A DNA stretch of 64,000 bases. Origin: an uncultured Candidatus Saccharibacteria bacterium (GTDB lineage Bacteria; Patescibacteriota; Saccharimonadia; Saccharimonadales; JAGQNJ01). Positions 40,018 through 41,832 of the stretch are shown here, piece by piece; position 1 is the first letter of the stretch, and each line of letters begins with the position of its first letter. The notes under the pieces were generated by a model. It was given only the letters and a program-made list of their open reading frames with translations. It did no database searches and was not told where the DNA came from. Made by a program: the position numbers and the translations under genes. The stretch is from assembly GCA_964493895.1 (NCBI GenBank), contig CAZBPY010000002.1, forward strand, positions 3,351-67,350. The letters run 5' to 3'.

Positions 40018-40876
40018 TACGATTGCCCTGAAAAGGCGCATCACCAGCGTTAAGAATACCAAGCAGATTACTAAGGCTATGGAGCTGGTGGCGGCCTCTA
40101 AAATGCGCCGGGCCCAAGAACAAACTCTGCGTACCCGCGATTACGCTATCATGGCTGGACAGATTCTGACTCGTCTTCGACAGCTGACTGATGTTAGTAA
40201 ACACCCTCTGTTTGTGCAGCGCCCTGTCAAAAACAAACTTTACATAGTGGTTACCAGTGATCGGGGTCTGGCTGGAGCCTACAACAGTAATGTCCTGCGG
40301 CAGCTGTCTAAAAGTCTGCGTCAGGACGCTGATGATAAAATTTCGACCCAACTTATTATTGTTGGCAAGCAGGCTGCCCGATTTGTATCTAGATTAGAAG
40401 ACGTCAATGCTCTAGCTGCTTATACTGAGTTTCCTGAACGCCCTACAGCTAATGACATTCGGCCAATTCTAAATACTATCACCGAGATGTACACTAAGCG
40501 CCAGATTGATGCTGTCGATGCTATTTTTACCGACTATAAGTCCAGCATCACCCAAGTGGTCAAGGTACAGCGGGTTTTGCCGGCAGCCTTTACTGCTGAA
40601 CCAATCTCTCACGATCTCGGCGAAGCAGATTTTGAACCTTCGCCAGAAGAAGTCCTGGCGTCGGTGACTTTGCGATTAATCGAAGCTCAGCTGACCCAGA
40701 TATTCTATGAAGCCCAGGCCTCAGAGCAGTCCATGCGAATGATGGCTATGAAGAATGCTACTGATAACGCCAATGAATTAGTCGATGATCTTACCCTGGC
40801 CTTCAATACAGCCAGACAAGCAGCTATAACACAAGAATTAGCCGAAATAACCGGCGGAGCGGAGGCCATCAAATGA
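40010..40876 (+). CDS. atpG: F0F1 ATP synthase subunit gamma
   Basis: Start at the ATG at 40010 ([36 protein letters not shown]). C-terminal [18 protein letters not shown]. Confidence 0.93.
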   Translation: [288 protein letters not shown]

Positions 40877-41448
40877 ACACAGTTAACCAATATGAACTGG
40901 AAAAACCGGCTCACCTAACAGATGAGTATGAACTTTACGGCCCCAACAATTTGTTGGTAGTGTCAGGCAAGCTCGCAGGCTTTGCTGCTGATTCAGCTAT
41001 TTACTTAACCGAAAGAATTAATTCAATAGCTGCCGCCAACAGTTTACCTGAATCTGCTAGCTGCCCTGATGCTACTTATCAATATAATTCACAGTGGGAT
41101 ACTCATCCCATAAAGGGTATTTCAGCACGACGACGTTTGCGACAAGAATGGCCCCAAAATATTAATCATATTTTAGAAGAGCGAGCCGAAGGCGACATAG
41201 CGCTAATACCTAACGGACCAGGATTCACCATTGCAGCGGCTTTGATTTTAGGACAGGCAGTCGGAATGGGTAGAGGCGATGTTTACCTATTCAAACGGAG
41301 AGTGCCAGATATGTATCGAAGGAACCCACGGGTACAGTCAGTAAATGATACGTCAAACTTGTTTGGCTGGCGAGCTCCCAACTCTGGCAAGGCTCATCAC
41401 GAATCCTTGAAAGCAACACCTGAGAATTTTGTGGGGGCAACTAGATGA
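40873..41448 (+). CDS. hypothetical protein inserted between atpG and atpD (191 aa)
   Basis: ATGA overlap with the atpG stop. Uninterrupted ORF. No motif recognised. Confidence 0.6.
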   Translation: MNTVNQYELEKPAHLTDEYELYGPNNLLVVSGKLAGFAADSAIYLTERINSIAAANSLPESASCPDATYQYNSQWDTHPIKGISARRRLRQEWPQNINHILEERAEGDIALIPNGPGFTIAAALILGQAVGMGRGDVYLFKRRVPDMYRRNPRVQSVNDTSNLFGWRAPNSGKAHHESLKATPENFVGATR

Positions 41449-41520
41449 CCATCGCCGAAACAGATATGACCAAAGATAGTGCATACCAAGTATACTAAAG
41501 AGATAAATAGGAGTTAGTTT

Positions 41521-41832
41521 ATGAATAAACCAGAAGAAGGGCCGCAGGCATTTCGAGAGATTGCCGATAGACAAAGGCCAGCACCGGTTGGTAGAACTCG
41601 GGTGCCAGCGCGATCATACCAAGATGCAGTGGAAGAAAGCGACCCCGGCTTGGTGGGCGCCGATGTGCCTACCAAAGATTCTAAACAAGAAGACACGGTT
41701 ATGGATTTATCCGTCTGGGGGACTGCTGCTGGTTACCTAACTGGCGATCCTGCACTGTTAGCAGCTCGCGGGCACACTGATGAAGAAATACAAAATATTC
41801 AGATTGAAATCGCAAAAAGAAGAGGAGAATAA
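41521..41832 (+). CDS. hypothetical protein immediately upstream of atpD (103 aa)
   Basis: SD TAGGAG lies 7 nt upstream. The stop TAA directly abuts the atpD ATG at 41833. Acidic and probably disordered. No motif recognised. Confidence 0.5.
   Translation: MNKPEEGPQAFREIADRQRPAPVGRTRVPARSYQDAVEESDPGLVGADVPTKDSKQEDTVMDLSVWGTAAGYLTGDPALLAARGHTDEEIQNIQIEIAKRRGE

Follow-up and report, generated by a model that had tools for sequence, protein, structure and literature searches.

The window, a 64,000-nt stretch of contig CAZBPY010000002.1 from an uncultured Candidatus Saccharibacteria bacterium, contains an F-type ATP synthase operon in which two additional same-strand ORFs, of 191 and 103 amino acids, lie between atpG (gamma subunit) and atpD (beta subunit) and are coupled to their neighbours as an earlier note on this DNA had described (Table 1). 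Few bacterial gene clusters are as conserved as F-type ATP synthase operons. Pfam and NCBIfam matches (E = 1e-84 to 1e-239) establish the two flanking genes as true atpG and atpD. The mechanical atpG ORF begins at TTG 40001; alignments from tblastn with 80 loci begin at query residue 2-10, mostly at residue 4, which makes ATG 40010 the probable start, and the stop codon is the TGA at 40874-40876.

The coordinates given in the earlier note for the 191-aa ORF, from within the ATGA of the atpG stop to 41448, are exact, and the 72-nt spacer and the TAGGAG of the 103-aa ORF (41508-41513, 7 nt ahead of the ATG at 41521) were confirmed base by base. The stop of the 103-aa ORF directly adjoins the atpD ATG at 41833, and the atpD GAGGAG does lie inside the 103-aa coding sequence. 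At 956 nt the gamma-beta gap is indeed the largest expansion of the operon, compared with 660 nt for alpha-gamma and 367 nt for beta-epsilon, the other F1 gaps. A Logan contig (L001, SRR9016294), possibly from the same sample as the window, has 100% protein identity over the 191-aa ORF's C-terminal part and the entire 103-aa ORF, and continues into the start of atpD.

Table 1 Features of the atpG-atpD region, in positions of the window.
Feature	Position	Strand	Remarks
atpG (F1 gamma)	40010..40876	+	Pfam PF00231, E = 3e-87; TIGR01146, E = 2e-84
GGAGG, Shine-Dalgarno-like	40861..40865	+	Within atpG 3' end, 7 nt upstream of the 191-aa start; read from sequence
ATGA start/stop overlap (atpG/191-aa ORF termination-reinitiation junction)	40873..40876	+	Read from sequence
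191-aa ORF	40873..41448	+	ATG 40873, TGA 41446-41448; family D (gamma-beta gap)
N-terminal motif P-x2-L-T-x2-Y-x-L-x-G-P	40906..40944	+	Residues 12-24 of 191-aa protein; alignment A2
Hydrophobic segment GPGFTIAAALILGQAVGMGRG	41197..41259	+	Within 191-aa ORF; not a conserved transmembrane helix
C-terminal motif N-x-F-G-W-R	41356..41373	+	Residues 162-167 of 191-aa protein; alignment A2
Spacer, 72 nt, A-rich, unstructured	41449..41520	+	Holds AGGAG 41509-41513, Shine-Dalgarno of 103-aa ORF
103-aa ORF	41521..41832	+	Stop TAA 41830-41832; acidic, pI 4.8; family A (gamma-beta gap)
Family A motif Y-Q-D-A-V-x5-G-L-V-G-A-D-V-P	41617..41670	+	Residues 33-50 of 103-aa protein
atpD Shine-Dalgarno, 103-aa stop and atpD ATG	41822..41835	+	GAGGAG 41822-41827, TAA 41830-41832, ATG 41833-41835
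atpD (F1 beta)	41833..43218	+	TIGR01039, E = 4e-239

The products of the 191-aa and 103-aa ORFs are two unrelated soluble cytoplasmic proteins. Neither ORF has a Pfam family at E <= 1, NCBIfam gave noise only, and no match was found in PHROGs, PADLOC or the PDB. Identity as a core F-ATPase subunit, or as a duplicated piece of one, was rejected, as there was no Pfam or NCBIfam match in either ORF, and so was identity as AtpI, AtpZ, Atp11, Atp12, IF1 or the zeta subunit (no Pfam match at E <= 1 in either ORF or its homologues; PDB profile matches at noise level). A k-mer-seeded search of 5.8 billion proteins recovered only the query for each ORF, and tblastn and jackhmmer searches of the 80 loci gave no match for the four inserts of the window; with the 191-aa protein, an exact-sequence contig look-up returned no record and a JGI metagenome scan using the alignment of its family no confirmed match. 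Relatives were recovered only by an exhaustive phmmer search for the 191-aa protein and by a motif profile for the 103-aa protein. The ORFs had been regarded as orphans; each instead belongs to a weakly conserved family which, on the sequences searched, appears limited to the atpG-atpD gap in a clade of Saccharibacteria (Saccharimonadales).

The 191-aa protein has distant full-length relatives with 25-30% identity, all encoded between atpG and atpD of other Saccharibacteria. Among 1.84 billion representative proteins, phmmer found two full-length matches, both from the gamma-beta gap: P0014 (E = 6e-6, 30% identity), the gene of which lies exactly between atpG and atpD, with MIP and UvrD/AddB genes downstream as in the window, and P0015 (E = 1e-4), from a gap of five ORFs. 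Further relatives are encoded between atpG and atpD in L009 (9363-9872) and L093 (1226-1828). In the alignment of this family (A2) the members are homologous over their whole length, 15 columns are invariant, and the invariant residues are encoded by differing synonymous codons among four members. The A2 HMM separates its own members from all other ORFs of the loci (best non-member E = 3.2), the L093 1226-1828 paralogue scoring E = 0.036. The 191-aa ORF thus belongs to family D, defined by full-length homology over ~170-200 aa together with both end motifs and found, on the same strand between atpG and atpD, in the window, L092, L093 (two paralogues) and L009. A 1196-aa repeat protein (P0016, E = 5e-4) that resembles the N-terminal motif was set aside, its gene context (a TIG-domain protein and a cell-wall hydrolase) being unrelated to atp.

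The hydrophobic core of the 191-aa protein had been suggested to be either a buried or a membrane-associating helix. The maximum of the 19-residue Kyte-Doolittle score, KD(19), is 1.62 in this protein and only 0.75-1.12 in three homologues, compared with 2.4-2.6 in the true transmembrane helices of subunits a, b and c; the segment is not a conserved membrane helix, but a buried helix remains plausible. In A2, L126 and G127 are the only invariant residues of the segment. The maximum for the 103-aa protein is 0.84, and neither protein has a conserved hydrophobic helix of about 19 or more residues as expected of a membrane protein. AlphaFold2 gave no fold (pLDDT 38 from the single sequence, 41 with a 3-sequence alignment). 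With a pI of 7.0, the 191-aa protein is not acidic.

The 103-aa product consists of A (12%), E (10%), D, R and G (9% each) and P (8%), with the pI given in Table 1; the description of it as rich in Pro, Glu, Asp and Arg therefore agrees with its composition, which fits a largely disordered acidic protein. Its family, A, comprises proteins of 50-105 aa, acidic and probably mostly disordered, that are built around one 20-residue motif with the consensus A-Y-R/K-D-A-V-x5-G-L-V-G-S-D-I-F-P, the family definition also admitting Q at the R/K position, E for the first D and A for the S. Residues 33-50 of the window protein read YQDAVEESDPGLVGADVP and depart from the consensus at the end, with DVP for DIFP. 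Applied to 13,310 ORFs from six-frame translation of 82 sources, the motif expression matched solely ORFs of the gamma-beta gap. The conserved G, L, V and S are encoded by varied synonymous codons, including AGY and TCN for Ser and TTR and CTN for Leu. A family A profile recovered the window protein at E = 4e-15 and two new members, P0010 (E = 5e-4) and P0011 (E = 2e-3), and the members are linked by phmmer as well. In length, motif and location between atpG and atpD the 103-aa ORF is a family A member. The family A ORF is the last before atpD in the window, L032, L035 and L083, the sole gap ORF in L049, the first in L082 and L002, and the middle one in L050. A PDB profile match of the motif family to designed ankyrin caps (E = 1e-4) covers ~25 residues and was rejected as a short compositional match.

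The two-ORF insertion is not private to this genome; it is one local instance of an old array that runs through the clade at three F1 junctions, shaped by differential loss and fast divergence. At the alpha/gamma, gamma/beta and beta/epsilon junctions of 80 related loci, the gap is usually filled by same-strand ORFs, mostly start/stop-coupled; inserts are present in 37-84% of the loci with at least 56% atpG identity, depending on the junction and identity bin. Fo-side junctions are nearly always tight, unlike the F1 junctions of the same transcript. In loci with a gamma-beta gap of at least 150 nt, the first gap ORF overlaps the atpG stop in 40/48 (by 4 nt in 32/48 and by 1 nt in 8/48). Most of the last gap ORFs either overlap the start of atpD or adjoin it, with a 1-nt overlap in 16/48 and abutting ends in 5/48 related loci. 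The longest open frame on the plus strand spans a median of 0.97 of the gap, versus 0.43 on the minus strand and 0.40 in shuffles (45 loci, gap at least 150 nt).

Gap ORFs range from 25 to 312 aa, and 122 of the 164 are singletons at E < 1e-3. The families are junction-specific, except for family H, which occurs at both alpha/gamma and gamma/beta, and follow recurring orders (F-D-?, F-O-A, F-I-A, O-A and D-A). L002, the closest relative (84% atpG identity), has no member of the 191-aa family, and DNA similarity to the closest relatives ends sharply at the borders of the core genes. In many relatives atpD is reached across a gap of 5-30 nt with no leader cistron. PF05635 proteins (23S-rRNA intervening-sequence proteins) account for 4/137 gap ORFs, in four loci at the beta/epsilon or alpha/gamma junction and none of them from the window; this family is not known to be linked to ATP synthase. 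A PF05635 identity was rejected for the window ORFs, which have no Pfam match. L040, L071 and L015, within the same identity range, hold almost no inserts and have the same core subunit lengths, an observation that speaks against an essential role of the inserts in F1. The idea that inserts offset truncated delta or epsilon subunits was likewise discarded: core lengths are constant and do not correlate with insert size (Spearman rho = -0.15 and 0.16, p = 0.32 and 0.23). The array of small, mostly acidic proteins between F1 genes, which extends across the whole clade, is previously undescribed; literature searches on Saccharibacteria and Patescibacteria brought up no account of ORFs between F1 genes. 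A 2026 preprint places a CPR pilus operon near ATP synthase genes.

Both ORFs are, with high confidence, real coding genes of families D and A. None of 200 shuffles reached a stop-free run of the length observed in the gap, and the codon-usage score is positive in the annotated frame only (0.13 and 0.23, versus 0.24 +/- 0.09 for accepted genes); that of the 191-aa ORF is matched or exceeded by 7/32 spurious ORFs. The evidence for selection on the window ORFs consists of family conservation and of positional counterparts in a sister lineage. In counterparts from L085, L090, L091 and L002, the motif-family gene (GD1) has a dN/dS of 0.11-0.21, and the value for GD2, from the diverged L085/L090 pair, is 0.24, in both cases with no indels; off-frame controls gave 0.76-3.0. 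In additional counterpart pairs pN is well under pS. Where measurable, dN/dS of gap ORFs is 0.1-0.4, versus 0.03-0.07 for core subunits, and non-synonymous change is 2-8 times faster than in gamma. These ratios, with the lack of indels, indicate that the gap peptide sequences are constrained. The earlier note had named random indels or frameshifts at orthologous positions as evidence that would speak against the two ORFs; the opposite was observed, since the open frames are conserved, no frameshifts were found, and the positional counterparts are under purifying selection. Gap genes are often lost or replaced yet under purifying selection.

Gap ORFs have a median pI of 4.5, versus 8.0 for ordinary genes of the window. 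Their net negative charge is +0.084 per residue, versus -0.069 in translations of shuffled nucleotides (133/133 ORFs). An origin of the acidity in purine-rich DNA was rejected since the gap ORFs are more negative than these translations; the acidity is selected, beyond composition.

The gap-filling coupled ORFs, the junction-specific families, the acidity and the dN/dS values together point to accessory genes that are genuine, restricted to the clade and coupled in translation, and that diverge and turn over rapidly. Taken as a whole, the favoured explanation, to which we assign a probability of roughly 0.6, is that both ORFs are real protein-coding genes, transcribed together with the F1 genes and with their translation coupled to that of these genes, for which an F1-linked accessory role would be the most likely function. 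Judging from the anatomy of the junctions, ribosomes would enter the 191-aa gene by termination-reinitiation at the atpG ATGA overlap, aided by the upstream GGAGG, whereas the 103-aa gene would be read by fresh initiation at the strong AGGAG in the spacer; ribosomes leaving the 103-aa gene would terminate right against the atpD ATG, with the atpD Shine-Dalgarno sequence in the last 103-aa codons. Scans of the spacer revealed no promoter- or terminator-like site and no Rfam match. The region 41430-41540 is less structured than shuffles (MFE -8.2 kcal/mol, z = +1.77) and the atpD initiation region is also unstructured (z = +1.41). The internal promoter or processing site considered in the earlier note therefore finds no sequence support in promoter, terminator, Rfam or fold scans.

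The operon position would secure co-expression with gamma and beta. The function of the gap proteins may be a dispensable, F1-associated one, for example as an assembly helper or as a regulator of F1 ATPase activity. That they act on F1 is predicted tentatively, from operon position and coupling, and we hold it to be somewhat less probable than its opposite. A stronger version is rather unlikely, namely that the F1-ATPase of this Saccharibacteria clade has gained an extra layer of small, fast-evolving and mostly acidic proteins of junction-specific families that bind F1 subunits and affect assembly or ATP hydrolysis, with the window pair as its gamma/beta members.

Unlikely to a similar degree, and the most serious competitor, is the possibility that the gap ORFs encode real proteins whose functions have nothing to do with ATP synthase, kept at insertion-tolerant junctions where expression in a tiny genome is constitutive and needs no promoter of their own. 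The marked heterogeneity of the gap ORFs, mostly singletons, would be expected of such passengers, as would turnover that is fast even at 84% gamma identity, core subunits identical to those of insert-free relatives, PF05635 ORFs in four loci at two different junctions, and the presence of family H at both alpha/gamma and gamma/beta. Against it, apart from family H each family keeps strictly to one junction, and the families occur solely in atp operons, both full-length matches among the 1.84 billion proteins falling in the gamma-beta gap; moreover, the Fo-side junctions on the same transcript are avoided, and the inserts share a selected acidity.

It is improbable that the ORFs act mainly in cis, as translated spacers in which ribosome transit and termination at the atpD start matter, the 103-aa leader bringing beta translation back to a high level after the low-copy gamma, with the peptides as such largely irrelevant. 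ORF continuity and start/stop coupling are indeed far better kept than sequence, the strong AGGAG lies in an unstructured spacer ahead of an equally unstructured atpD initiation region, and ORF lengths vary widely. However, the peptides are constrained (dN/dS 0.1-0.4, no indels in counterparts), protein-level motifs are kept across synonymous codon changes, the acidity is selected, and the many relatives with a 5-30 nt gap express atpD with no leader cistron.

A recent mobile or phage-derived cassette is very improbable. The break in DNA similarity at the core-gene borders is what such a cassette would leave, but no flanking direct or inverted repeats were found around the insert, its GC content (0.43-0.50) does not deviate from that of the rest of the operon region (0.44-0.56), the PHROG and PADLOC searches were negative, and an IMG/VR scan, made for the 191-aa family only, returned no relatives; this family also occupies the same position in loci of just 68-72% atpG identity, which indicates vertical inheritance. 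Chance ORFs or decaying pseudogenes in an enlarged non-coding spacer, to which the lack of Pfam, NCBIfam and PDB matches, the poor AlphaFold confidence and the moderate codon score of the 191-aa ORF might have pointed, are essentially refuted by the comparative data, given the shuffle tests, the full-length distant homologues at the same position, the motif conservation at the protein level and the purifying selection in counterparts.

The accessory genes favoured here are unexpected under strong genome reduction, as ultra-small episymbionts keep up to ~2 kb of fast-evolving, selected small-protein genes at F1 junctions. Should the gap proteins act on F1, they would represent new regulators or assembly factors, and this in organisms of poorly understood energy metabolism whose enzyme may work in reverse. 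Otherwise the array would be a clean natural case of new genes sheltered through translational coupling in an essential operon. In either case, families D and A offer defined targets to proteomics, co-purification and complex prediction.

Bacterial atp operons also carry small genes outside the core set, such as atpI/uncI, atpZ/urf6 and AtpR, which are restricted to certain lineages, transcribed together with F-ATPase subunits, dispensable for catalysis and thought to help assembly or ion supply. The gap ORFs resemble them as small lineage-restricted genes in the atp operon; those genes, however, encode membrane proteins of Pfam families upstream of atpB, on the Fo side, whereas the gap ORFs encode soluble proteins between F1 genes, have no Pfam match and evolve much faster. 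Inhibitors of F1 (mitochondrial IF1, the alphaproteobacterial zeta subunit, cyanobacterial AtpTheta and the epsilon C-terminal domain) are small, partly disordered and lineage-specific and block wasteful ATP hydrolysis, and by analogy a similar role can be proposed for the gap proteins, which have no sequence similarity to them in Pfam and PDB searches. Apart from the epsilon C-terminal domain, the known F1 inhibitors are generally encoded outside the atp operon and form single conserved families, while the gap ORFs form arrays of many fast-evolving families. A further likeness is to PF05635 proteins (four-helix bundle; bAvd-like), which are also encoded by small ORFs within highly conserved, highly expressed loci; the 191-aa and 103-aa proteins do not match them and have other lengths and motifs.

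The accessory subunits of mitochondrial ATP synthases (trypanosomatid p18, and those of apicomplexans, ciliates and euglenozoans) are likewise novel, poorly conserved proteins that a clade has added to a canonical F1Fo, and if the gap proteins bind F1 they would be a bacterial counterpart of these lineage-specific subunits of protist mitochondria. The mitochondrial proteins are eukaryotic, nuclear-encoded and stoichiometric according to structures or complexome profiling (PMC7987180), whereas the gap proteins are known from their genes and, in contrast to stoichiometric subunits, their inserts are dispensable across close relatives.

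The 191-aa and 103-aa ORFs lie between atpG (gamma) and atpD (beta) of an F1Fo ATP synthase operon, and their anatomy and coupling signals are as the earlier note had read them. The 191-aa ORF starts in an ATGA overlap with the atpG stop (40873-40876), ends at 41448 and is followed by a 72-nt spacer. The 103-aa ORF has its own SD (TAGGAG, 41508-41513, 7 nt upstream of the ATG at 41521) and its TAA stop (41830-41832) abuts the atpD ATG (41833), whose SD (GAGGAG, 41822-41827) lies within the 103-aa coding sequence; GGAGG is additionally present 7 nt upstream of the 191-aa start. 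The open frame of the gamma-beta gap was matched in none of 200 shuffles, and a Logan contig encodes the C-terminal part of the 191-aa protein and the entire 103-aa ORF at 100% protein identity, continuing into atpD. The 225-aa and 123-aa ORFs at the two neighbouring junctions have codon scores like those of genes and are part of the same phenomenon. Neither matched Pfam or, by tblastn, any related locus; for the 123-aa ORF there is a single weak link, to a beta-epsilon ORF of the related locus L045 (E = 0.003). The mechanical atpG ORF begins at TTG 40001, but because homologue alignments begin at residue 4, ATG 40010 is the likely start, with which the 225-aa stop (40015-40017) would overlap by 8 nt.

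Features of the window operon and PF05635 ORFs at the F1 junctions of related loci
Feature	Locus	Position	Strand	Remarks
F1Fo operon	window	35546-44014	+	atpB-E-F-H-A-[225 aa]-G-[191 aa][103 aa]-D-[123 aa]-C
atpH (delta/OSCP)	window	37422-37802	+	126 aa; matches Pfam OSCP positions 50-170
225-aa ORF	window	39340-40017	+	fills atpA-atpG gap; start/stop-coupled to neighbours; in-frame codon score 0.34
123-aa ORF	window	43218-43589	+	fills atpD-atpC gap; start/stop-coupled; codon score 0.28; pI 4.1
PF05635 ORF	L011	3963-4337		beta-epsilon gap
PF05635 ORF	L059	3617-4009		beta-epsilon gap
PF05635 ORF	L078	10456-10836		beta-epsilon gap
PF05635 ORF	L058	1315-1524		alpha-gamma gap

Searches of Pfam, NCBIfam, PHROGs, PADLOC and PDB sequences assigned neither the 191-aa nor the 103-aa ORF to a family, and a word-seeded search of 5.8 billion proteins retrieved for each only itself. 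The orphan status proposed in the earlier note nevertheless does not hold for either ORF. When 1.84 billion representatives were searched exhaustively with phmmer, two full-length relatives emerged for the 191-aa protein (family D), namely P0014 (178 aa, E = 6e-6, 30% identity) and P0015 (186 aa, E = 1e-4). The P0014 gene lies exactly between atpG and atpD and overlaps the atpG stop, with atpC, a MIP channel and a UvrD/AddB helicase downstream, as in the window; P0015 is encoded by the fourth ORF of a gamma-beta gap that holds five. The family D alignment, which includes a further relative (L009 9363-9872), has 15 invariant columns spanning residues 12 to 185. Invariant residues vary in synonymous codon (Leu CTA/CTC/TTG, Gly GGC/GGT/GGA, Arg CGA/CGT/AGG), which places the conservation at the protein level. 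Between the window and the locus of P0014 (L092), gamma is 72% and beta 87% identical, but the family D proteins only 28-30%. L002, with 84% gamma identity to the window, is without any family D gene; thus, genes have been lost or replaced in addition to diverging quickly.

The N-terminal motif of the 191-aa protein, LTDEYELYGPNNLLVVSG (40906-40956, residues 12-28), closely resembles a unit of about 22 residues, ALTEQYKLVVPNTALVISGQQP, repeated many times in P0016, a protein of 1196 aa encoded on an unrelated metagenomic contig (L097 680-4270; E = 5e-4, 7 matched stretches). The gene adjoins those for a TIG-domain protein and a cell-wall hydrolase. The two may have a strand-turn-strand unit in common.

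The 103-aa protein (family A) has a 20-residue motif, A-Y-R/K/Q-D/E-A-V-x5-G-L-V-G-S/A-D-I-F-P, in common with small ORFs of six related loci (L049, L032, L035, L050, L002 and L058) and the database proteins P0010 and P0011. All members with readable context lie between atpG and atpD, and among 13,310 six-frame ORFs the motif matched only gap ORFs of this family. Its conserved Gly, Leu, Val and Ser are coded differently among members, including AGY/TCN and TTR/CTN switches.

A scan with gamma, using one genome per species, gave 80 Saccharibacteria loci (51-84% gamma identity). Among these, gaps reach 711 nt (alpha-gamma), 1752 nt (gamma-beta; L008 8871-10622, partly confounded by a run of N) and 776 nt (beta-epsilon), while Fo-side gaps are tight almost without exception. 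Gaps of at least 150 nt are, in nearly every case, filled by same-strand ORFs, the median longest open plus-strand frame being 0.97 of the gap, compared with 0.43 for the minus strand and 0.40 for shuffles. Overlap of the first gap ORF with the atpG stop is seen in 40 of 48 loci, and in most loci the stop of the last one overlaps or abuts the atpD start. Similarity to the nearest relatives in DNA breaks off exactly where the core genes end or begin; identity to L002 in the flanking genes is 66-91%. The gap ORFs clustered into 17 small families and many singletons, the families being found only in atp operons and each only at a single junction (gamma-beta for A, D, F, I, K and O, alpha-gamma for B, G and L, and beta-epsilon for C), with H and E as exceptions. 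Family order recurs, as F-D-? (L009), F-O-A (L035), F-I-A (L083), O-A (L032) and D-A (window), and L093 (816-2920) has five consecutive coupled gamma-beta ORFs (136, 200, 70, 186 and 108 aa; about 2.1 kb), two of them family D paralogues. The recurring order and junction specificity accord better with an old array of several genes that has undergone differential loss than with repeated insertion at random.

In the lineage of the closest relative, comparable pairs (L085, L090, L091 and L002) gave dN/dS of 0.11-0.21 for the first gamma-beta ORF, a member of the motif family, and 0.24 for the second between the diverged pair L085/L090, with no indels in the compared pairs. Off-frame controls gave 0.76-3.0, and gamma and beta 0.03-0.07. 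In other orthologous gap-ORF pairs dN is 2-8 times that of gamma and pN is well below pS. The gap-ORF proteins are constrained, diverge and turn over fast, and are dispensable across relatives. They are also acidic as a class (median pI 4.5; pI below 5.5 in 86%, compared with 19% of ordinary window proteins); the 103-aa protein (pI 4.8) is within this class and the 191-aa protein (pI 7.0) outside it. Nucleotide composition does not account for the acidity, since translations of shuffled nucleotides are net basic and each of the 133 gap ORFs exceeds its own shuffles in acidity. The second gamma-beta ORF of the L002 lineage (115 aa; L085 3215-3562, L090 660-1007) has a dS of 0.24, with 0.8-1.0 in the flanking atpG/atpD segments, and is 91% identical in DNA (flanks about 84%), which could reflect recent inter-lineage recombination or extra synonymous-site constraint.

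From this arrangement, ribosomes finishing gamma would reinitiate on the 191-aa gene, while the 103-aa gene would be initiated independently from its own SD and would bring ribosomes to the atpD start. The spacer contains no promoter- or terminator-like site and no Rfam match; its RNA, like that of the atpD initiation region, is less structured than shuffles, which fits open ribosome-binding sites and not a processing hairpin. The products are predicted to be soluble cytoplasmic proteins made alongside the F1 subunits. A membrane-associating helix had been suggested for the 191-aa hydrophobic segment, but its hydropathy is 1.62 (0.75-1.12 in homologues) compared with 2.4-2.6 for true transmembrane helices of the same operon, and membrane proteins were rejected for both ORFs.

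The putative function that we prefer, at a probability of about 0.35, is a non-essential helper or regulator linked to F1, favoured by the exclusive, position-specific association with F1 genes, the avoidance of Fo junctions and the shared, selected acidity. F1 binding, if shown, would raise the importance of the gap ORFs substantially. The main rival, itself rather unlikely, is that unrelated hitch-hiker genes are sheltered by the operon, as the heterogeneity and turnover of the gap ORFs would suggest. So would the PF05635 cases: non-core Pfam domains occur in only 4 of 137 gap ORFs, none from the window, and all four are PF05635 (23S rRNA intervening-sequence protein; best E = 4e-37), a bAvd-like four-helix bundle that typically sits inside conserved loci. 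One more gap ORF, with a match to the alpha/beta N-terminal barrel, is probably a core gene whose ends were set wrongly. A role purely in cis, as a translated spacer or leader cistron, is very improbable given the peptide-level constraint and the relatives that express atpD without any leader. A mobile cassette was rejected, since the ORFs are not flanked by repeats, their composition is not anomalous and the 191-aa family has no viral relatives. The idea that the inserts make up for a truncated core subunit was likewise rejected: judged by its OSCP match, the window delta lacks roughly 50 positions at the start of the N-terminal domain, but a short delta (124-136 aa) occurs in every related locus and epsilon is of normal length (about 141 aa) in nearly all, with or without inserts.

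The gap ORFs were rated as lineage-specific accessory genes of the atp operon. The nearest known kinds, namely the non-core genes atpI and atpZ, the small F1 inhibitors IF1, zeta and AtpTheta, and the lineage-specific subunits of protist mitochondrial ATP synthases, have no sequence relation to the 191-aa and 103-aa ORFs, and none of them occurs, as the gap ORFs of the Saccharibacteria loci do, in arrays between F1 genes that evolve fast and are specific to a junction. A literature search found no description of such arrays in Saccharibacteria or Patescibacteria. A novel CPR pilus operon, pam, and a tail-fibre-like gene are reported to be consistently co-located with ATP synthase genes (2026 preprint, 10.64898/2026.03.03.709456).

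Just upstream of the window operon, a 379-aa ORF (32808-33947, +) has no match in L002 and no Pfam domain, and a 165-aa ORF (34544-35041, -) shares only 28% identity with the corresponding ORF of L002, compared with about 82% for the neighbouring cobalamin adenosyltransferase-like and glutaredoxin genes.
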